A stretch of DNA of 64,000 nt from Patescibacteria group bacterium (GTDB lineage: Bacteria > Patescibacteriota > Minisyncoccia > Minisyncoccales > GWA2-38-27), in contig JAHCRG010000006.1 in the NCBI GenBank assembly GCA_020148045.1, forward strand, positions 9,909 to 73,908, written 5' to 3'. Within the stretch, counting starts at the first letter, position 1, and each line of letters opens with the position of its first letter. The notes beneath the pieces are model-generated. The model did not search any database and had not been told where the DNA came from. It saw nothing but the letters and a program-made list of their open reading frames with translations. A program made the position numbers and the translations under genes. This document shows, one piece after another, positions 1 to 46,128 of the stretch.

Positions 1-2523
1 AAAAATCTAAAATCAGAGTTAGTGATATTCCCAGGCGTAGAAGTAATTTCTACAGAAGGAATTCATATGTTAGTGGTTTTTGATAAGGATAAGTATATTA
101 AAAAAGATCAGATTAAAAACTGGAGTGATTATATTTCAGACTTTCTTGCTAGAATTAAAGTTCCGATAAAAAGATTTAAAAATAAGCAACCTCAAAAATC
201 TGACATGAAAGCGATTGAAATATTAGAAGAAACGAATAAATATTTTGGGTTGGTAATTTTTCCCCATGCGTTGAGCGATCAAGGAGTTGTGAATGAGTTA
301 CGAAAAGATACCCTTTTAGGGTATGCAACCGCTCAAACAAAACAACAAATTTATACCCATCGCTTAGCGGGAGTTTTAGAAATACCAGATAAAATCGAGA
401 ATTTACCAAAAGGATATTCAGGAATTGTATCAGGTAAAGATAAAAATTACAAATATAAAAAAGTTGCCTGTATAAATTGCTCCGATGCAAGGAGCTTTTC
501 GAAAGTAGGAATTAGTGGAAGTTATACATGGGTCAAGGCAATACCCACCCTTGAGGGCTTAAAACAGATTATTTATGAACCAGAGGAAAGAGTTCATATA
601 GGATTAAAAGACCCTAGAAAATTTAACTATCCCATTCTGTTTAAACTTAAAATTGATAATTGCTCTAAATCCTTTTTCTTTGGAAAAGGATTGGAAGTAA
701 ATCTTAATCCTCATTTCGTCACTATTATTGGAGGTAGGGGAAGCGGGAAATCTGCGTTTCTGGATACGCTTGTTTTATCATTAAATAGAAGTGAGGTTTT
801 AAATAGAGATAATTACATCAATAATTATTTAAAGAAAAAAGAAAGTCTTATTATTAAAGCGGATATTCTTAGTTCAAGTGATGGGACCGAAAAATCACTT
901 TCTTTCAGGAGCCTTAGTAGTGATGAAATTATTAAAGAGTTCCCTTTTGAATATTATCCCCAAAAAGAGATAGGAAAACTAGCTGATCCAAGAAGTAAAA
1001 CAGATTTAAGCAAGCTTATTTTCCAAAAAATCTTTGAGAAAAAAGCCAAGGAGGAGATAAAATTGATTAGAAAATATAATGACGATACACTTTCAGATTT
1101 AGGAGAGAATCGAGAACAAATTCAGAAAATTGAAAGAATTTTAAAAGATGAAGAGATTCTTAAGAAAAATTTGGAAGAAAGTAAAAAACAAATTGAATTT
1201 CTTCAAGATAAGAAAATCGAAACCCTTCTAGAAAAGAGAAAAAATTTTATTCAGATTCAAAACCAATATAAAGAAATAAAAGAAAAAATTAGTGATGAAA
1301 TTAAAATAATAAAAGAAAATCTAGAAGTATTTCAAAAAAATCATTTTGATTATTTATTTTTTCAAACCGAGGGGAATAAGAATTTTTTACCTAAAAAGTG
1401 GATTCAATTTGAAAAGTCTCGTTTACCTCAATTACTAAAAAATATATTCGATGGAAAAGAAAAATTATTTACCGGTTTGGAGATATTACTTCAGGAGATT
1501 GAAAAATATATTAAATATTTCGACCTAGAAAAAGAAATCAAAGAAATTAGTAGAGAAATCCAGAAAGTAGTCAAAACAAAAAGTCTCTCATATTCTGACA
1601 AAGGAGTAGAAGATTTACAGAAAAAAATCTCTGATGTTGAAACTAAGCTTAAAAAAATTGAAGAATTGAAATCCCGAAAACAAGAACTGATAAAAGAAAG
1701 AAAGAAAATTAGGGAAAATTATTTTTTACACCTTAAGGAGATCAGAAAGAAACTAGAAGATGTTTTCGGTAGTTTCTGTAATAATGAAGGTAAAATTTTA
1801 AATGAGCGCATTCGGATAGGCTTCTTTTTAAGTACAAAAAACAAAGAATGTATAAAAATGATTGAGAAAAATCACATAGTAGAGGATTCATTTCGTGGAT
1901 ATTTTCCACGGGAAATATTATTGTGGGTGATGGAAAATAAGGGATTAAATAAAGTAATTGAAGCATTCCGCGAAGGGAGCTTTGATTCGTGGCGGAAATG
2001 GAAAAAGATAGGACCGCAAAAAGTTAGTTATTTAAATAATATCATAAACAAAGAGGGAATTGCTATGAGATTAGAAGAAATATTACCTACCCTTTCATCT
2101 GGCTTAAAATGGCGAGTTGCTAAAAATTATAAACCATTATCCGAATGCTCGATTGGAGAAAGAAGTACGGCTGTATTAAGTATTATATTAGTATCAGGAG
2201 AAACTCCTCTTATAATTGATCAGCCAGAAGATGATTTAGATCACTCATATATATTTAAACCCCTTGCCGATATTATTAAACATGTAAAAAAGAAGAGGCA
2301 GTTAATTTTTGCTAGTCATAATGCAAACATTGTAATAAATGGAGATGCTGAGCAGATTTTAATTATGGAAGCAGAGGGCGGGAAGCACGGTAAGATTACG
2401 ATTTCCACGATCGAGGATATAGAAAAAAGAAATAAATTACTTTCTATTTTAGAGGGAGGAAGAGACGCTTTTGATAAAAGGGAGAAAAAATATGGCCCCG
2501 CAAACTCTCAATCAAAAAATTAA
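1..2523 (+). CDS. PHP-like phosphoesterase fused to ABC/SMC-RecF-SbcC-like ATPase; 5' end cut by window edge
   Basis: Frame is open from nt 1 (KNLKSEL precedes the tracked GTG at 22). N-terminal GVEVISTEGIHMLVVF looks like a PHP strand-His motif. Walker A GGRGSGKS, a roughly 400-aa K/E-rich coiled coil, signature-like CSIGERS, Walker B PLIIDQPEDDLD and H-loop FASHNAN are present. Confidence 0.7.
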   Translation, partial: KNLKSELVIFPGVEVISTEGIHMLVVFDKDKYIKKDQIKNWSDYISDFLARIKVPIKRFKNKQPQKSDMKAIEILEETNKYFGLVIFPHALSDQGVVNELRKDTLLGYATAQTKQQIYTHRLAGVLEIPDKIENLPKGYSGIVSGKDKNYKYKKVACINCSDARSFSKVGISGSYTWVKAIPTLEGLKQIIYEPEERVHIGLKDPRKFNYPILFKLKIDNCSKSFFFGKGLEVNLNPHFVTIIGGRGSGKSAFLDTLVLSLNRSEVLNRDNYINNYLKKKESLIIKADILSSSDGTEKSLSFRSLSSDEIIKEFPFEYYPQKEIGKLADPRSKTDLSKLIFQKIFEKKAKEEIKLIRKYNDDTLSDLGENREQIQKIERILKDEEILKKNLEESKKQIEFLQDKKIETLLEKRKNFIQIQNQYKEIKEKISDEIKIIKENLEVFQKNHFDYLFFQTEGNKNFLPKKWIQFEKSRLPQLLKNIFDGKEKLFTGLEILLQEIEKYIKYFDLEKEIKEISREIQKVVKTKSLSYSDKGVEDLQKKISDVETKLKKIEELKSRKQELIKERKKIRENYFLHLKEIRKKLEDVFGSFCNNEGKILNERIRIGFFLSTKNKECIKMIEKNHIVEDSFRGYFPREILLWVMENKGLNKVIEAFREGSFDSWRKWKKIGPQKVSYLNNIINKEGIAMRLEEILPTLSSGLKWRVAKNYKPLSECSIGERSTAVLSIILVSGETPLIIDQPEDDLDHSYIFKPLADIIKHVKKKRQLIFASHNANIVINGDAEQILIMEAEGGKHGKITISTIEDIEKRNKLLSILEGGRDAFDKREKKYGPANSQSKN

Positions 2524-2527
2524 TTGA
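2509..2527 (+). repeat. A-rich junction motif, copy A (caatcaaaaaattaattga)
   Basis: Shares the core atcaaaaaatt with copies C, D and E. It supplies the last codons (SKN) and stop of the upstream ORF. Confidence 0.8.
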
Positions 2528-2565
2528 CCCATCACTACCAAAAGTTTTCAACTTTGATGTGAGAG
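2527..2565 (+). repeat. REP-like imperfect palindrome R1
   Basis: Arms are cccatcactacca and gatgtgagag. It belongs to the same arm family as 5838-5879, 7710-7746 and 31997-32025, and is the most degenerate copy. Confidence 0.7.
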
Positions 2566-2579
2566 CAAGGAAATAAAAT

Positions 2580-2954
2580 ATGAATGGATATTTTTGTAAA
2601 GAATGTAATCATAGAAAATGGCTTTATGAATGGTTAAAAATCAATTTTTGTTTCTATTGCAAGAAAAAAACACCAAATAATGTTAATATTACTGTTTCTG
2701 ATAAAGTATCGATTAAAGATAATGTAAGGATAAAAATTAAAAGAAAAGGGTTTAAGAAATTTGTAATAGAAACTATAAGCGGATGGTTTAGCAGTGTGAA
2801 TCCAAGATTAAATAAAGGAGTTAATATCACTCGGACTATCGACAAGGAAAAAAAATGGTATGATCACGTCGTGAAAGATGCAAATACCGGGGAAATTATT
2901 CATGAAGAACATGAACCATTGGATGAACATAAAAGCAAAAAGTCAAAGAATTAA
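2580..2954 (+). CDS. small Zn-ribbon protein, unknown function
   Basis: Two Cys pairs (CKECNH and CFYCKKK) sit at the N-terminus. The protein is basic and ends in KSKKSKN, encoded by junction motif copy B. Confidence 0.5.
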   Translation: MNGYFCKECNHRKWLYEWLKINFCFYCKKKTPNNVNITVSDKVSIKDNVRIKIKRKGFKKFVIETISGWFSSVNPRLNKGVNITRTIDKEKKWYDHVVKDANTGEIIHEEHEPLDEHKSKKSKN

Positions 2955-2958
2955 TTGA
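2935..2958 (+). repeat. A-rich junction motif, copy B (degenerate)
   Basis: The sequence is aaaaagtcaaagaattaattgag. It shares aattaattga with copy A and gaaataaaa with the sequence after copy D. Confidence 0.6.
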
Positions 2959-2969
2959 GAAATAAAATT

Positions 2970-3575
2970 ATGATGAACGACATTTTAGAACAAGTCGTAG
3001 AAGATTATTTTAGAAGCAAGGGATATTTTACTCAACATAATGTTAAATATAGGCCTAATAAAGTGGGTCCACAGTATACGGTTTATTCTGATGTGGATGT
3101 CGTTGGTGTGCATCCTAAAAAGAGAGGTAGGGAAAGAGTCGTTGTAGTGAATTGCAAAAGTTGGCAGGTGGGACTTAATATAGATAAAACTTTAAAAACA
3201 CTCGATAAAAATCCTAATAAAAAAATTGCTGGAAAAGAACAATGGAAAAAATTTAGAGAAATAAGTAATAAAGTTTGGGCAGAAGCCCTTAAGAAGAAAA
3301 TATTTAATATAACTGGCCAAAAGAGCTTTAAATTTTATTTAGCAGTTACTAAATATAAAGGGAATAAAGATAGCTGGGAAAAATTTCCTTTATTTAAAAA
3401 AAATCTGATAGGCTGTGATATTGAAGTTATTGATATAAAAGCCATGCTTTTGGATACTTACAAATCAATAGGACGCACTCCGCTACACAGCGAATTAGGC
3501 CGTTTGTTGCAATTAATAAAGGCTAGTGGTGGTAAAATAGAATATATAGAAAAGAATAAAAAATCAAAAAATTGA
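2970..3575 (+). CDS. PD-(D/E)xK-like (restriction-endonuclease fold) protein, unknown function
   Basis: YSDVDVVGV followed by VVVVNCKSW fits a D...(E/N)xK nuclease-core pattern. ATG at 2970 is preferred over the tracked TTG at 2955. The C-terminus is KNKKSKN. Confidence 0.45.
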   Translation: MMNDILEQVVEDYFRSKGYFTQHNVKYRPNKVGPQYTVYSDVDVVGVHPKKRGRERVVVVNCKSWQVGLNIDKTLKTLDKNPNKKIAGKEQWKKFREISNKVWAEALKKKIFNITGQKSFKFYLAVTKYKGNKDSWEKFPLFKKNLIGCDIEVIDIKAMLLDTYKSIGRTPLHSELGRLLQLIKASGGKIEYIEKNKKSKN

Positions 3576-3578
3576 TTA
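3558..3578 (+). repeat. A-rich junction motif, copy C (aaaaaatcaaaaaattgatta)
   Basis: It is 21/21 identical to copy E and contains the palindrome AATCAA-AAAA-TTGATT. Confidence 0.9.
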
Positions 3579-3580
3579 GG

Positions 3581-4156
3581 ATGAAAATCATATTTATAAC
3601 TACAAATAAACATAAGTTTGAAGAAGTGCAGGGTATTTTAAAAGATTATCCTATTGAGTTGGAACAGTTGTCTATGGAGTACGAAGAAAATCATGATTCT
3701 AGAATGGAAGAGATTGCAACAAGTGCAGCAAGAAAACTTGCAGCAGAACTTAATAAACCACTAATATTAGAAGATACGGGTTTGTTCTTTGAGGCTTATG
3801 AGGGTTTTCCAGGAGCACTTCCTAAATTTGTTTTTAACGCTTTAGGATATAAGGGGATATTTAAGTTACTTCAAGGTGAGTCAAGAAAGGCATATTTTAA
3901 AACAGTAGCTGCTTATTGTGAGCCAAATAAAGAGCCTGTTTTATTTGACGGGATTGTGAGGGGGGATATTACTAATAAAGTATATAATAAAGATAAAGAC
4001 GCAATGCCATATGATAGAATTTTTATTCCACAAGGTGTGTCCAAAACAATTTCTGATATGACGTTAGAAGAAAAGAACGCACTTTCTCAAAGAGCAGAAG
4101 CATTTAAAAAATTCGGGGATTATATTGTAAACAAAAATAAAAAATCAAAAAATTAA
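3581..4156 (+). CDS. rdgB: RdgB/HAM1-family non-canonical purine NTP pyrophosphatase (dITP/XTPase)
   Basis: Motifs FITTNKHKFEE, EDTGLFFEA and MPYDRIFIP (FGYDPIF-like) are present at about 190 aa. ATG at 3581 is preferred. The C-terminus is NKNKKSKN. Confidence 0.85.
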   Translation: MKIIFITTNKHKFEEVQGILKDYPIELEQLSMEYEENHDSRMEEIATSAARKLAAELNKPLILEDTGLFFEAYEGFPGALPKFVFNALGYKGIFKLLQGESRKAYFKTVAAYCEPNKEPVLFDGIVRGDITNKVYNKDKDAMPYDRIFIPQGVSKTISDMTLEEKNALSQRAEAFKKFGDYIVNKNKKSKN

Positions 4157-4159
4157 TTA
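4139..4159 (+). repeat. A-rich junction motif, copy D (aaaaaatcaaaaaattaatta)
   Basis: It matches copies C and E at 20/21 positions. Confidence 0.9.
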
Positions 4160-4209
4160 AGAAATAAAAGGTCGGAAAGGTTAATAATTAATTAAATTAT
4201 TTTAAGAAT

Positions 4210-5010
4210 ATGACAAACACAATCTTAATAATTTTAGGAATAATTATCTTCATTATTTTGATTTCTATCAAGCAAATTAATCAGTATCAAAAAGGAGTAA
4301 AGTTTATGCTGGGTAAGTATATTGGTTTGATGAATCCGGGATGGAGATTGGTTTTCCCTATTATTCAGACCTATAGAAAAGTAGATTTAAGAGTAAAAGC
4401 AGTAGATGTACCAAGTCAGGAAGCAATAACTAAGGATAATATTTCAGTGAGCGTTAATGCTGTTATTTATTATAAGGTTCGAAGTGCTGATAAGGCAGTT
4501 TTAGAGGTAGAAAACTTTAATTATGCTATTTCTCAGTTGGCTCAGACAACAATGCGAAATGCTGTAGGTCAGGTGGATTTAGATGAACTTCTTTCCCAGA
4601 GAGACAGGGTTTCGGAAAACATAAGAACTATTGTAGATAAAGCCACTGATCCATGGGGAATTGAAGTTATCAATGTTGAGTTGAAAGATATAACTTTGCC
4701 GGAAGAAATGAAAAGAGTTATTGGCAAACAGGCAGAGGCAGAAAGAGAAAAAAGAGCAATAATTATTAAAGCTCAAGGAGAGGTGATTGCTGCTGACAAC
4801 ATGGCTAAAGCTGCTCAGATTTTGTCAGAATCAAAAGGAGCCCTGCATTTAAGGACTCTTCAGTCAGTTAATGATATAAGTTCTGACCAGTCAAATACTA
4901 TTGTTTTTGCAGTGCCTCTGGAAGTTTTAAGGGCTTTTGAAGCATTTGGTAAAAAATTACCAAAAGAAAACAAGAATGAGGAAGATAATAGCCCTCAATC
5001 TCAACTTTGA
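4210..5010 (+). CDS. SPFH/Band-7 (stomatin-like) membrane protein
   Basis: An N-terminal TM helix is followed by typical Band-7 sequence (VDLRVKAVDVPSQEAITKDNISV ... AEAEREKRAIIIKAQGE). Confidence 0.9.
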   Translation: MTNTILIILGIIIFIILISIKQINQYQKGVKFMLGKYIGLMNPGWRLVFPIIQTYRKVDLRVKAVDVPSQEAITKDNISVSVNAVIYYKVRSADKAVLEVENFNYAISQLAQTTMRNAVGQVDLDELLSQRDRVSENIRTIVDKATDPWGIEVINVELKDITLPEEMKRVIGKQAEAEREKRAIIIKAQGEVIAADNMAKAAQILSESKGALHLRTLQSVNDISSDQSNTIVFAVPLEVLRAFEAFGKKLPKENKNEEDNSPQSQL

Positions 5011-5030
5011 TTTTTTGGTAGAATGAAATA

Positions 5031-5789
5031 ATGAAAGAAGAAACTAAAAAACAATTAAAAGTTTATACAATTTTAGTTATTATTTTGGCTGCGGCGGCAG
5101 CGTTAAGTGTTTTTTTTCTTGGTTCTATTCAAGTTGGCGGGCAGGAGATTCCGATGGAAATAGAAATACCGCTATATTTAGGTGCTTTGGCTAATTTTGG
5201 AATGATGTTAATAGGTTATGGCTTAGTTGGGTTATTGGGTTATTATTTATCAAAGAAATTAGGATGGCCTGGTATTTTTAATGAAAGAGAAAACTGGAAA
5301 AGGTTATTTTTAAGACCATTATATCTTGGTGTAATAGCAGGGATTATTTTAATTATTGCTCAGAAAGTATTTGTTTTATTTCATAATTTAGGAGAATTGC
5401 CTCATCCAGCTTTTCCTCTTTCTTTTTTTGCTTCTATTACAGCAGGAATAGGAGAGGAATTAATGTTTAGATTATTTTTATTATCTTTTTGGGCTTTTAT
5501 TCTTCATTTGCTATTTAAGAGGTTTAAGAAACAAAACATAACAAACTGGATAGCTGTTATCATTGCTGCTTTAGTTTTTGGGGCTGTACACTTTCCAACT
5601 GCAATGATTCTTTATGGATTTACCTCACTTAGCCAGTTTCCAATTATTTTTATAGTTGAAATATTATTATTAAATGGAATTGTTGGCGTGGTAGCAGGCA
5701 GAGAGTTTATTAAATATGGCTTTATAGCAGCTGTTGGTATTCATTTCTGGGTAGACATTGTTTGGCACGTTATGTATGGATTATTTTAG
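5031..5789 (+). CDS. CPBP (CAAX/Abi) family intramembrane glutamic endopeptidase
   Basis: The protein is polytopic and carries the motifs EELMFRLFLL, FGAVHF and HFWVD. Confidence 0.85.
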   Translation: MKEETKKQLKVYTILVIILAAAAALSVFFLGSIQVGGQEIPMEIEIPLYLGALANFGMMLIGYGLVGLLGYYLSKKLGWPGIFNERENWKRLFLRPLYLGVIAGIILIIAQKVFVLFHNLGELPHPAFPLSFFASITAGIGEELMFRLFLLSFWAFILHLLFKRFKKQNITNWIAVIIAALVFGAVHFPTAMILYGFTSLSQFPIIFIVEILLLNGIVGVVAGREFIKYGFIAAVGIHFWVDIVWHVMYGLF

Positions 5790-5816
5790 AAAAAATAGTG
5801 TCAACTCTATTTTTAT

Positions 5817-5837
5817 AAAAAATCAAAAAATTGATTA
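5817..5837 (+). repeat. A-rich junction motif, copy E (non-coding position)
   Basis: It is identical to copy C. It lies 28 nt after the CPBP stop and directly abuts palindrome R2. Confidence 0.9.
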
Positions 5838-5879
5838 ACCCATCACTACCAGAAATCCTACGGATTTTGGTGTGAGGGT
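5838..5879 (+). repeat. REP-like imperfect palindrome R2
   Basis: The sequence acccatcactaccagaaatcctacggattttggtgtgagggt folds as a long hairpin. It has three single-nt bulges (A, T, G) on the 5' arm and a TAC triloop. Confidence 0.9.
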
Positions 5880-5887
5880 AAAAATTT

Positions 5888-6169
5888 ATGGAGAAGATAA
5901 ATAAAAAACAATTTACAGAGGAAGAGGCGAAGAGGATTGGTGAGGAGTTGGGGATTGATTGGAGCAAGTTTGACGTGGAGCAGTTTCGGATGGGATTAGA
6001 TGTGGAGCTGGAGCATGGAACAGTAGATCCAAAGACAAATGTTACTGACGATGATGAAATAATGACTGGCAAGATTGCTCTTGCTCACTTGAATGAATTT
6101 TCAGATTACTACACACGGCTTGAAAAGATGGAAAAAGAGGCAGAAGAATATTGGGAAGGGCTGAAGTAA
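5888..6169 (+). CDS. small acidic conserved hypothetical protein (possibly DUF5661-like)
   Basis: A 93-aa ORF with the motifs LEHGTVDPKTNVT and KIALAHLNEFSDYY. The family name is from memory and unverified. Confidence 0.45.
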   Translation: MEKINKKQFTEEEAKRIGEELGIDWSKFDVEQFRMGLDVELEHGTVDPKTNVTDDDEIMTGKIALAHLNEFSDYYTRLEKMEKEAEEYWEGLK

Positions 6170-7758: not shown

Positions 7759-8346
7759 ATGGAAAAAGCAACGCCTGTGACTTCAGCGGCTCCGGTTCCT
7801 CCTAAAAGCGGTGGCAGATCAGGATACGGGGCTGGTTGCGCAATAGGGTGTTTAATAATAGTGCTGATAACACTGTTAATCTTAGGTGCTTTGATTGGAA
7901 CAGGGTATTATTTCCTTTTTATGAGAGAAAAAGAGCCGGGAAGTTATTTTGATGTTGATAAAAAAGCTGAAAAAACAATTAAATGCGACACTGCTTCCTG
8001 CTTGGAAGAAAATCTTAAGAAATGCGCCCCAGCTAATGGCGGGGCAGAGATAGGAGAGTTTGCCGAGGTTGAATTTGAAATCTTAGGGCAAAGTGGTGAT
8101 TTCTGTGTGGTCTATGCTGAAGTAACTGAATTAAAAGAAATTCCTTCTCAATTGGAAGTAGCCCCTGATTTCATTCTTGAGAAATTGTTGGAAAATCTGA
8201 CACTGGAGTGTTTAATTCCAGAGAGAGTTTATACTCAAGGGATAGAGGAAGTCGGGGATTACATTGGAGAAAATCCCCACGCTGCCTGCAAAGGTCCTTT
8301 ATTTGATTTAATGGACAAATTTGGAATAAAAATAGAAGAATATTAA
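7759..8346 (+). CDS. membrane-anchored Cys-containing hypothetical protein
   Basis: An N-terminal TM helix is followed by a soluble domain with six Cys. An extended -10 box TGGTAAAAT ends 6 nt before the ATG. Confidence 0.5.
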   Translation: MEKATPVTSAAPVPPKSGGRSGYGAGCAIGCLIIVLITLLILGALIGTGYYFLFMREKEPGSYFDVDKKAEKTIKCDTASCLEENLKKCAPANGGAEIGEFAEVEFEILGQSGDFCVVYAEVTELKEIPSQLEVAPDFILEKLLENLTLECLIPERVYTQGIEEVGDYIGENPHAACKGPLFDLMDKFGIKIEEY

Positions 8347-8731: not shown

Positions 8732-8800
8732 AAATTGGAGGACTGAAAGGTCGACCGAGGTCATAAAGAATAAAAAATTAATTAAGTAGAAAGCAAAAAT

Positions 8801-9145
8801 ATGAAAAAATTAATTCTATTTGGAGCAATAGCAGTATTTCTAATGGCATCGATAGGAACAGTAGTAGCTAAGGGACCATATAATCCAAATGCAATTGACA
8901 AAAATCCAAATCTAAATGATTTTAGTGAGATTTGGCCCACAGCATTAGATTTACAGACGAATCTGGATGGCGACTTTGTTCAGTGGTTTCACAACAGACA
9001 CTACATTTGTCAATGCACAGATGGTATGAATCCAGATGCGATAGCTAGCAAGCTAAGTGAAGGTTGGTTTATATGGCATCCAGCAACAGATGATCCACGC
9101 TACGAATGGTGCAGCAATCATGAATACATCATAAAAATGATTTAA
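8801..9145 (+). CDS. secreted hypothetical protein
   Basis: A signal peptide (MKKLILFGAIAVFLMASIGTVVA), and a W/H/C-containing domain with RYEWCSNH. Confidence 0.5.
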   Translation: MKKLILFGAIAVFLMASIGTVVAKGPYNPNAIDKNPNLNDFSEIWPTALDLQTNLDGDFVQWFHNRHYICQCTDGMNPDAIASKLSEGWFIWHPATDDPRYEWCSNHEYIIKMI

Positions 9146-9267: not shown

Positions 9268-9774
9268 ATGAAATCATTAATCGCTTCAATTTTGATTTTA
9301 GGATTAGTTGGAATGGTAGTGGGAGCGGCAGTGAAGGCAGCTACAGAGGGAAGTGTTACTGCTACTGTAACTCCGGGAGTAGTTTCAGTGATAGTATCTC
9401 CAAACAGTTTCGATTATGGTTATATGACATTGAATACATCAAAGACTTCGCATGAGGCAGGCCAGACATCAGGAATAACTGCTACTGTTGGTGGTGTTAA
9501 TACCGACCTCGAGATTAAAGGAGCTGATGCAACCTCTTCTAGTGGGTCATGGACACTTGTTGGTACCCCTGGATCAGATGAATATGTGCATGAATTTGGT
9601 GAAGGCGCTGATCCTAGTTCATACACTACTTTAACTACAACCTATGTTGATCTTGCTAGTGTGTCTGCAAGTGGGAGTTACGTCTTCGGGTTAAGAATTA
9701 CTACACCTACTTCATCAACATATACAGAGGAATACTCTGTGCCTACTATTGTTCTGGCGAGCTGGGGAGGCTAA
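9268..9774 (+). CDS. secreted T/S/G-rich beta-sandwich-like surface protein
   Basis: It has a signal peptide. The domain pattern (VSVIVSPNSFDYGYMTL ... SWTLVG ... FGLRITTP) recurs at the C-terminus of the adjacent S8 protease. Confidence 0.55.
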   Translation: MKSLIASILILGLVGMVVGAAVKAATEGSVTATVTPGVVSVIVSPNSFDYGYMTLNTSKTSHEAGQTSGITATVGGVNTDLEIKGADATSSSGSWTLVGTPGSDEYVHEFGEGADPSSYTTLTTTYVDLASVSASGSYVFGLRITTPTSSTYTEEYSVPTIVLASWGG

Positions 9775-9887
9775 TTACCCTAAATATTCTTAGAAAATGG
9801 TGTCAATTCTATTTTAAACGCTAAAATCCCTGCCCTGCTAAGCAGGGCAAAGCGTAAGTTTATATGATTAAAAAAGGGAATTTTTAT

Positions 9888-30826: not shown

Positions 30827-30841
30827 ATCTTTTCTCCTTTC

Positions 30842-30871
30842 CCAACCTATGGTTGGTCAGCCGTAGGCTGA
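30842..30871 (-). repeat. double-hairpin 30-mer, copy 1 (5' UTR of purL)
   Basis: The plus strand reads ccaacctatggttggtcagccgtaggctga. The minus strand reads TCAGCC-TAC-GGCTGA-CCAACC-ATA-GGTTGG. It is identical to 46006-46035. Confidence 0.95.
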
Positions 30872-30949
30872 TTTTCCAAAAAATATTGTCAATGAGCTAC
30901 TTGCCCCGCACCGAAGTTGTTCTGGTGCGGAGTTCGCATACGATACTCA

Positions 30950-35509: not shown

Positions 35510-35563
35510 GTTCGAGTCCTGTCCCCGGAGCAGGCTAGTGAGGCGTTCGGGAGACCGAGACGC
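35510..35563 (+). repeat. tRNA-3'-end-like repeat, copy A
   Basis: The sequence is ggagttcgagtcctgtccccggagcaggctagtgaggcgttcgggagaccgagacgc. GTTCGAGTCC...CCCCG resembles the T-loop/acceptor end of tRNA-Pro at 46053-46126. Confidence 0.8.
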
Positions 35564-35566
35564 GTC

Positions 35567-35592
35567 AAAAATCGCCACAATGGCGATTTTTT
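35567..35592 (+). terminator. intrinsic terminator (AAAATCGCC family)
   Basis: The sequence is aaaaatcgcc-acaat-ggcgatttttt. Confidence 0.8.
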
Positions 35593-35629
35593 GGTAGGAT
35601 GAAAGAAGATATTAATTATTATTAATATT

Positions 35630-36543: not shown

Positions 36544-36605
36544 CAAGTTCTAATATTGTACCATCCCCGGAGCAGGCTAGTGCTCGGTTCGAGAGACCGA
36601 GAGGC
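36544..36605 (+). repeat. tRNA-3'-end-like repeat, copy B
   Basis: The sequence is caagttctaatattgtaccatccccggagcaggctagtgctcggttcgagagaccgagaggc. The 3' part matches copy A and the 5' part matches copy C. Confidence 0.85.
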
Positions 36606-36609
36606 ATAG

Positions 36610-36634
36610 AAAATCGCCAATAAGGCGATTTTTT
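36610..36634 (+). terminator. intrinsic terminator (AAAATCGCC family)
   Basis: The sequence is aaaatcgcc-aataa-ggcgatttttt. Confidence 0.8.
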
Positions 36635-36648
36635 GATACAATTGATGT

Positions 36649-38547: not shown

Positions 38548-38569
38548 GTCGCCAAAAAGGCGGTTTTTT
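38548..38569 (+). terminator. intrinsic terminator (AAAATCGCC-related)
   Basis: The sequence is gtcgcc-aaaaa-ggcggtttttt. Confidence 0.7.
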
Positions 38570-45976: not shown

Positions 45977-46005
45977 ATGATATTGTTGTCGGGGTGCCGA
46001 GAATT

Positions 46006-46035
46006 GCCAACCTATGGTTGGTCAGCCGTAGGCTG
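46006..46035 (-). repeat. double-hairpin 30-mer, copy 2
   Basis: It is 30/30 identical to 30842-30871. It lies between tRNA-Pro and the phosphoesterase start. Confidence 0.95.
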
Positions 46036-46052
46036 AAACTCTTAATATTATA

Positions 46053-46126
46053 GTCGGGGCACCCGGACTTGAACCGGGAATCACGCGCACCCCATGCGCG
46101 TATGTTATCCAATTACACCATGCCCC
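46053..46126 (-). tRNA. tRNA-Pro (anticodon GGG)
   Basis: A manual cloverleaf fits. Acceptor CGGGGCA/TGCCCCG, D-arm GTGT/ACAT, anticodon stem CGCGC/GCGCG with loop AT-GGG-GT, T-arm CCCGG-TTCAAGT-CCGGG and discriminator A. It is 74 nt with no encoded CCA. Confidence 0.85.
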
Positions 46127-46128
46127 GA

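Follow-up and report, generated by a model that had tools for sequence, protein, structure and literature searches.

Four consecutive and mutually unrelated open reading frames (ORFs) near the start of a 64,000-nt stretch of a Patescibacteria chromosome (JAHCRG010000006.1; hereafter the window) end in the same residues, -KSKN, which raises the question of whether this C-terminus belongs to the proteins or to the DNA that encodes them. Patescibacteria, the members of the candidate phyla radiation (CPR), have tiny genomes and are mostly uncultured, and the acquisition and expression of their accessory and anti-phage genes are poorly understood. An earlier reading of the sequence (the original prediction) had traced the tails to a 21-nt A-rich motif present in five copies and had proposed a cassette junction, a palindrome-binding operator or a functional protein tag. 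The present analysis covered about 74 kb of the genome, including 10 kb upstream of the window. The motif is a DNA-level element, mostly non-coding, and no protein tag. It probably acts as the junction element of a hypervariable accessory and defence gene array, combining a stop, a restart signal and a crossover point.

The 21-mer AAAAAATCAAAAAATTGATTA occurs exactly at 3558-3578 and 5817-5837 and with one mismatch at 4139-4159, i.e. three times in 64 kb against 0.08 expected, a count reached by none of the shuffles. Its 16-nt core AATCAAAAAATTRATT is also found exactly at 2510-2525 and with two mismatches at 2941-2956. All five predicted sites were thereby recovered, and these copies, denoted A to E, lie on the + strand and span 3.3 kb:

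2507-2527, + strand: copy A, CTCAATCAAAAAATTAATTGA; gives the ATPase ORF its final codons and its TAA stop (2521-2523)
2938-2972, + strand: copy B, AAAAGTCAAAGAATTAATTGA with GAAATAAAATT-ATG; TAA, TGA and TAA shut all three frames before the ATG at 2970
3558-3578, + strand: copy C, perfect; TGA stop at 3573-3575 and HAM1 ATG at 3581; left edge of the HAM1 block in common with the related locus L228
4139-4159, + strand: copy D; TAA stop at 4154-4156; right boundary of a 7.5-kb island missing in the related contig L194 and right edge of the HAM1 block in common with L228, with the break just 3' of TTRA
5817-5837, + strand: copy E, perfect; wholly non-coding

No exact copy is present in the remaining 58 kb of the window. 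Besides the five copies only three matches with two mismatches occur in the 64 kb, and only two of these lie outside the array. With five strand-specific copies in 3.3 kb, the motif has the profile of neither a DNA uptake sequence nor a genome-wide dispersed repeat. A weak copy, AAAGAATAAAAAATTAATTAA, was noted at 8765-8785, 5' of the gene at 8801.

The four ORFs that end in copies A to D all use the same frame of the motif:

1-2523, + strand (ORF 22-2523): PHP and SMC-like ATPase, the 3' part of a 921-aa TrlF/Ppl-like defence protein; ends in GPANSQSKN
2580-2954, + strand: Zn-ribbon-like ORF of 124 aa without Pfam hit; ends in KSKKSKN
2970-3575, + strand (ORF 2955/2970-3575): NERD-like, nuclease-related ORF of 201 aa without Pfam hit; ends in KNKKSKN
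3581-4156, + strand (ORF 3572/3581-4156): HAM1/RdgB NTP pyrophosphatase of 191 residues; tail NKNKKSKN

According to Pfam (SMC/AAA ATPase, no hit, no hit, Ham1) the four tailed proteins (tails SQSKN, KSKKSKN, KNKKSKN and NKNKKSKN) are indeed unrelated to each other, as had been claimed. The Ham1 domain stops at residue 180 of 191, and none of the approximately 85 other window ORFs of at least 90 aa has the -KSKN ending.

Such a tail might be a functional peptide tag of the module, or chance low complexity in AT-rich DNA; four window tails in one frame, the frequency of A-rich 3' ends in AT-rich genomes and the chance occurrence of the 21-mer outside this clade are all compatible with this. The homologues make it highly improbable. 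The tail is present in only one of 119 other homologues of the nuclease-like protein (P0008, 67% identity, contig L005), in one of 119 of HAM1 (P0242, 88% identity) and in none of 119 of the ATPase, and in both positive cases the DNA motif is there too. HAM1 relatives at 83-84% identity end in NKN, NKNK or KKIKETKD instead. The comparison of orthologues found no tail independent of the motif, so that the predicted identity at the nucleotide level is borne out and the functional tag, offered as its alternative, is not.

The use of reading frames leads to the same result. Where the motif is translated, it is read in all three frames, giving -KSKN, -SQKIN/D and -KKLIK; in L005 alone, the motif AAAAGTCAAAAAATT(A/G)ATTAA ends three different genes in two frames (KSQKIN, QKSKN and KSQKID). 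Among 55 good copies, 38 have a nearby ORF, and this upstream ORF stops before the motif in 22 cases, at the first TRA (-KSKN) in 10, at the second TRA (-SQKIN/D) in four and after the motif (-KKLIK and similar) in two. A C-terminal peptide tag was rejected on these grounds, i.e. homologues without tail, the use of several frames and the non-coding nature of most related copies; the fifth window copy is non-coding as well, and three window matches against 0.08 expected also speak against a chance origin. The shared -KSKN tail is a by-product, because an ORF lacking its own stop codon continues into the element, where its frame decides which tail it acquires. In the case of copy A, the 5' part may be partly ancestral coding sequence, because the closest ATPase homologue (60% identity, other gene context) ends in GPTNSRSED, encoded by the alignable TCTCGATCAGAAGATTAA where the window has TCTCAATCAAAAAATTAA.

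The element itself has the core AAAA-R-TC-AAAAAA-TT-R-ATT-R-A, of which AAAATT-R-ATT-R-A is the best-conserved portion. Among copies not used as search seeds, purines occupy the two R positions in 31/34 and 30/34 cases, A and G being about equally frequent at the second, and therefore TAA or TGA is kept in two frames; the third frame is usually shut by (G)AAATAAAAT just 3' of the motif. The next ATG follows 5-14 nt 3' of the motif in 22 of 41 cases. At longer distances a GC hairpin is often found in a fixed slot directly after TTRATTRA: seven of the eight members of the hairpin family CCCRTCACTACC...GGTGTGAGGG occupy this slot, with upper stems that differ while pairing is kept. Two such hairpins, R1 and R2, and a further extension element are present in the array:

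2528-2566, + strand: GC hairpin R1 (CCCATCACTACC...GATGTGAGAGC), in the slot directly 3' of copy A
5790-5814, + strand: extension element AAAAAATAGTGTCAACTCTATTTTT, a weak A/U hairpin with conserved loop GUGUCAAC, which accompanies non-coding copies in many related loci
5839-5878, + strand: GC hairpin R2 (CCCATCACTACC...GGTGTGAGGG), -23 kcal/mol, z=-4.6, without U-tract

Copy A thus adjoins R1 and the non-coding copy E adjoins R2, both as originally described, and the two copies with their hairpins form a 34-nt direct repeat of 91% identity. Junctions much like copy B (TTAATTGA-R-AAATAAA-T/A-TTATG) are present in L005, L040, L119 and L173. The extension located 5' of non-coding copies (e.g. 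window 5790-5814 and L003 6296-6320) has the consensus AAAAAT-R-G-K-GTCA-R-Y-TCT-R-ATTTTT and folds with -3 to -7 kcal/mol. The 8-bp palindrome TTAATTAA is present in about one third of the motif copies.

Related structures were also seen away from the array. A second extension copy, AAAATGGTGTCAATTCTATTTT, lies at window 9794-9817 after the gene at 9268-9774 and is followed by the GC hairpin CCCTGCCCTGCTAAGCAGGGCAAAG (~9826-9850), the 21-nt motif being absent there. A hairpin of the R1/R2 type, CCCCCACACCAAAGTTCGGTAGTGGGGG, occurs near L003 960-1200, 5' of the window, where an apparently structured non-coding stretch lies between it and a promoter-like site TTGACA-N17-TAAAAT.

The palindrome AATCAA-N4-TTGATT, on which the operator proposal had been built, is intact in copies C and E only, while A, B and D carry TTAATT. 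Nor is it conserved in related loci, because the left half varies (ATC, GTC, CCC, GTCG) and the right half TTAATT is commoner than TTGATT; it is also the commonest right half where the left half is ATCAA. The 6-4-6 stem contributes to -3.4 kcal/mol in a 41-nt fold that also holds a second small hairpin. A palindromic operator or RNA hairpin was rejected, as the stem is weak, is missing in three of five copies and has halves without covariation; the strong strand specificity of the element likewise contradicts a palindrome-binding protein. Rfam has no family at gathering score anywhere in the window.

The distribution of the motif was followed by a metagenome scan seeded with it, which listed at least 120 loci, and by a genome scan. 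At least 25 Patescibacteria-like loci from the two scans share the same architecture, several with 5-9 copies, and the same motif stands at unrelated genes in differing frames in L005, L040, L172, L141, L207, L214, L183 and L146. In 29 loci, 89 copies have the orientation of the genes and 11 the opposite one, and AAAAATT is followed by RATTRA in 60/349 cases on the gene strand against 0/140 on the other. All nine core copies of L172 are on the gene strand, and L141, L207 and L214 are alike in this respect. Within this clade the motif keeps to the gene strand and to the borders between genes. Outside of it the 21-mer is a chance AT-rich word: the genome collection gave 85 single matches over many phyla, only eight of them at an ORF end. 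The predicted link to gene ends consequently stands inside the clade and fails beyond it. A universal motif was rejected, since the matches in the genome collection are single and mostly not at junctions, and so was a phage origin, as the viral contigs of IMG/VR gave no junction match and only three chance matches to the motif itself.

Two other repeat families came to light in these scans. An unrelated family with the same 21-mer, GGTGAGTAAAAAAATCAAAAAATTRATTAAACCGAGAAAA..., occurs on very AT-rich contigs (L186, L203, L206, L129, L150 and L169; Ga0307xxx and Ga0325xxx samples); it may be eukaryotic or organellar and raises raw motif match counts. Another conserved motif, AAAATTTAGCCCGAAGTTGA(G)G, was noted repeatedly at the junctions of genes in further Patescibacteria-like defence islands (L099 at 7832-7862 and after 8966 and 9759; L101 after 1266; L097 after 7847). 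A DUF4268 protein in L099 owes its tail QNLARS to this motif, which resembles the 21-mer in this behaviour.

When related genomes are compared, the points at which genes have been gained, lost or replaced coincide with the motif. In L194, a Lactamase_B gene (78% nt identity) is joined to motif and Band_7 (88%) across 38 nt which hold the extension and the motif, homology with the window resuming at the motif 5' edge; L194 therefore is without the 7.5 kb that ends at copy D here. HAM1 of L228 (protein identity 88%) is preceded by a HAD gene and followed by a terminator and another gene, and nucleotide homology with the window starts exactly at the upstream motif (copy C) and ends just after the TTRA of the downstream motif (copy D). 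In L172, the array downstream of Lactamase_B (85% identity) is a different one and has nine motif copies. The 241-aa gene, which in this genome lies 5' of the window, is in common with L172, where it is flanked by 35-nt direct repeats of the variant junction AAAATTTATCCAAAAATTGAGAAAAATTTAATTA; L172 and this genome diverge after the repeat. This variant was located at L003 7075-7110 (just 5' of the window), L172 7915-7950 and 8720-8755, and L173 ~790-830. A DUF1653 gene flanked by TAAAATTTATGGA stands between motif and NUDIX in L172, while in L159 NUDIX directly follows the motif. Upstream of the DUF5661 gene of L124 (87% nt identity) stand other genes, likewise parted by motif copies, and the six contexts studied for the nuclease-like gene all differ in its neighbours. 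The arrays contain restriction-modification, Abi, Mrr, HEPN, NUDIX, MazG, UDG, HD, SET and similar genes. The breakpoints in L194, L228 and L172/L159 fall at motif junctions and support the cassette-junction reading of the original prediction.

Breakpoints on or inside the motif, co-oriented and apparently promoterless cassettes parted by a repeated site, and identical copies across diverged genomes would also be expected if the motif, perhaps with the extension hairpin, were a site-specific recombination site at which a recombinase builds an integron-like array. We regard this as improbable. No integrase or recombinase gene was found in the island, the 10 kb upstream, the large window ORFs or the arrays L172, L207 and L214; there is no attC architecture and the palindrome is not conserved. 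Furthermore, the DUF1653 insertion breaks at TAAAATTTATGGA, off the motif, which is more easily reconciled with exchange by homology than with cleavage at a fixed point.

As to expression, the array genes have neither promoter nor Shine-Dalgarno (SD) sequence. A consensus scan finds no sigma-70 promoter at any copy, its total count being that of the shuffles; GGAGG is missing before the starts downstream of motif copies; and intrinsic terminators are predicted neither at the motif nor at R1/R2, the canonical ones being located at other window sites (e.g. 6226 and 7282). SD sites are scarce in the host as a whole and are missing from many core genes, EF-G and EF-Tu among them. The anti-SD motif in 16S rRNA has been reported missing in part of one Parcubacteria subgroup (PMC9297842). 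Leaderless-type starts of the form TGnTAnAAT occur at window 5016, 7744, 13884, 36634 and 38569, with the ATG 6 nt on at four of them and 8 nt on at 38569, and often directly follow a conserved terminator AAAAATCGCC...GGCGATTTTTT (6166, 15601, 35564, 36606, 38541).

These features suggest the following mechanism. An ORF without its own stop would read into the element and end at the TAA or TGA there. As this stop block lies a few bases 5' of the next AUG in an unstructured A-rich spacer, it would favour termination-reinitiation, by which promoterless cassettes could be translated one after the other, and selection would keep the element as a universal stop and restart adaptor. Repeated copies of 21-35 nt would at the same time supply short homology for motif-to-motif exchange of cassettes, as with the promoter-early stem-loop (PeSL) cassettes of T4-type phages, where exchange between copies has been shown experimentally (PMC2839356, PMC4122927).

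Alternatively, the motif could be a non-canonical promoter or part of one, each cassette having its own transcript. Every copy precedes a start codon in the same orientation, a degenerate copy together with the extension is present in the divergent intergenic region 5' of the 241-aa gene (L003 6296-6349), and PeSLs are promoter-based. We give this little probability, since no copy matches a -35/-10 pair, the motif is unlike the clear host types TTGACA-N17-TAAAAT and TGnTAnAAT-N6-ATG, and the only -10-like hexamer, TAAAAT, is too near the ATG. Two specific forms were rejected: a leaderless promoter, as the host type TGnTAnAAT-N6-ATG mismatches the junction, and an extracytoplasmic-function (ECF)-like promoter via the extension (AACT-N15-TCAAA), which fits copy E but neither the alternative upstream hairpin GTCGTTGACGACAGTCGTCAAC nor copies free of the extension.

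The chance is similarly slim that the motif is an operator or stoperator-like site at which an asymmetric repressor, e.g. a nearby LexA-like protein, blocks transcription of the array. Short intergenic sites whose orientation follows transcription are known from the L5 stoperators (PMC9283540), and LexA-like genes lie near several arrays. The LexA-like domain here, however, is fused to a type II methyltransferase paired with a restriction enzyme, L010 has a LexA-like gene and no motif, and the setting is chromosomal and no prophage; a role in translation is suggested instead by the fixed ATG distance and by the fact that the positions defining the stops vary among purines only.

Frameshifting was considered separately. 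A_AAA_AAT is in frame at the copies, yet a -1 slip would fuse only copy C to the next ORF (nuclease-like and HAM1), with no structure 3' of it; at copy A a stop follows at 2574 and at copy D immediately, and -1 frameshifting was rejected. At copy B the Zn-ribbon and nuclease-like ORFs share a frame and are parted by a single TAA (2952-2972). The possible frameshift fusion at copy C and read-through fusion at copy B are probably coincidental.

Several points weigh against a combined stop, restart and crossover junction. The near-invariant TC and the two A-runs exceed the sequence needs of stop and restart, and the extension hairpin with its conserved loop is unaccounted for by such a role. In 22 of 38 cases the upstream gene stops before the motif and leaves the motif stops unused. 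The left boundary of the window island is not at a motif copy, and the "empty site" in L194 could equally be a deletion in that lineage. A homologue from a motif-free context ends in a diverged version of the copy A tail. Finally, some of the statistics are circular, because the related loci came from the motif-seeded listing and were partly chosen by eye. A bound protein of the stoperator type, a dedicated recombinase or an unusual promoter might account for the strict TC, the A-runs, the extension hairpin and the unused stops.

A standard junction of the kind preferred here, joining stop, restart and crossover, would explain how hypervariable defence arrays are built and stay expressed in CPR bacteria, and it would account for an annotation pitfall, namely spurious identical C-terminal tails on unrelated proteins. 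The motif could also serve as a search handle for cassette arrays in metagenomes. Conceivable, if rather unlikely, is the further step that it marks an integrase-independent or as yet unrecognised CPR gene-capture system with the 21-nt junction as expression adaptor and recombination site. Such a system would bring together and reshuffle genes for defence and nucleotide sanitation in long promoterless arrays and be a functional analogue of integrons; to our knowledge, no integrons are known in the Patescibacteria lineage.

The array in the window is co-oriented and has a Lactamase_B gene on one side and a DUF5661 gene on the other, with similar arrays in related genomes. The copies lie within a low-GC defence and accessory island, a setting evident from the genes 5' of the window, which are in this order a type II restriction enzyme, a LexA-S24-methyltransferase fusion, the 241-aa gene and the ATPase. 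Restriction enzyme (His-Me finger, PADLOC REase_II 2e-46) and methyltransferase fusion are located at L003 4218-6265, the methyltransferase being fused to a LexA-like helix-turn-helix and an S24 peptidase domain. The ATPase (Pfam SMC_N/AAA_21; PADLOC Ppl, E=2e-42) is a complete gene that extends upstream on the same contig. Downstream of HAM1 follow:

4210-5010, + strand: Band_7/SPFH gene
5031-5789, + strand: CPBP/Rce1-like protease gene with its own leaderless-type promoter, TGGTAGAAT-N6-ATG at 5016
5888-6169, + strand: DUF5661 gene, start AAAAATTT-ATG, 3' of hairpin R2

Two direct repeat pairs of 83% identity were noted elsewhere in the window. One of 75 nt (TCCCCGGAGCAGGCTAGTG...; 35522-35596 and 36564-36638) ends in terminator hairpins, and one of 52 nt (TTSCCAACCTATGGTTGGTCAGCCGTAGGCTGA; 30839-30890 and 46004-46055) has a copy adjoining tRNA-Pro (46053-46127).

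In order to place the element among known systems, it was compared with four types of repeated intergenic sites. With REP/BIME repeats the hairpins R1 and R2 share an extragenic or intercistronic, imperfect and dispersed nature as well as upper stems that vary with compensating changes. The 21-nt motif, however, is not a palindromic repeat, the hairpins are bound to one junction slot (7/8), and no RAYT-type transposase is seen near the window array. L5-type stoperators (PMC9283540) resemble the motif in being short and asymmetric, in occupying narrow intergenic gaps, often at a stop, and in keeping one orientation relative to transcription. They are defined by phage repressor binding in a prophage, whereas the motif stands in chromosomal accessory arrays.

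The likeness to integrons is one of organisation. Co-oriented, promoterless and unrelated cassettes with a repeated site at each gene's 3' end are found in copies A to E and in L172, gene content is hypervariable between conserved flanks, and, as in CALINs (attC clusters without integrase), there is no adjacent integrase. The sites themselves differ: attC are structured palindromes of 57-141 bp with RYYYAAC/GTTRRRY cores and paired R''/L'' and L'/R' arms, recombined by IntI, whereas the motif has about 21 nt, no conserved palindrome and no GTTRRRY at the junctions read. An attC site was rejected on size, missing cores and the unmaintained palindrome, and no IntI was found in the window island, the 10 kb upstream or the arrays L172, L207 and L214.

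The searchable literature, queried for cassettes and intergenic repeats of Patescibacteria, gave no description of such an element, and the motif would appear to be a variant form of PeSL-like or integron-like junction repeats in a lineage for which none was found described. The PeSL offers the closest parallel in composition. Both are short composite intergenic modules in which an AT-rich stretch with the upstream stop, a stem-loop and the next start codon are combined, both concentrate in hyperplastic regions between small variable genes, and in both cases it is at the element that the breakpoints of indels and replacements fall when relatives are compared, with copy-to-copy recombination proposed as the driver. 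In contrast to the motif, which has no recognisable promoter or SD, the PeSL comprises a strong sigma-70 promoter and an SD; its stem-loop is a proven terminator, whereas the conserved core here is a two-frame stop block, and it belongs to phage genomes and not to a Patescibacteria chromosome. By analogy, the element may be regarded as a PeSL-like junction cassette without promoter, and it would provide a chromosomal counterpart to the phage PeSL mechanism.

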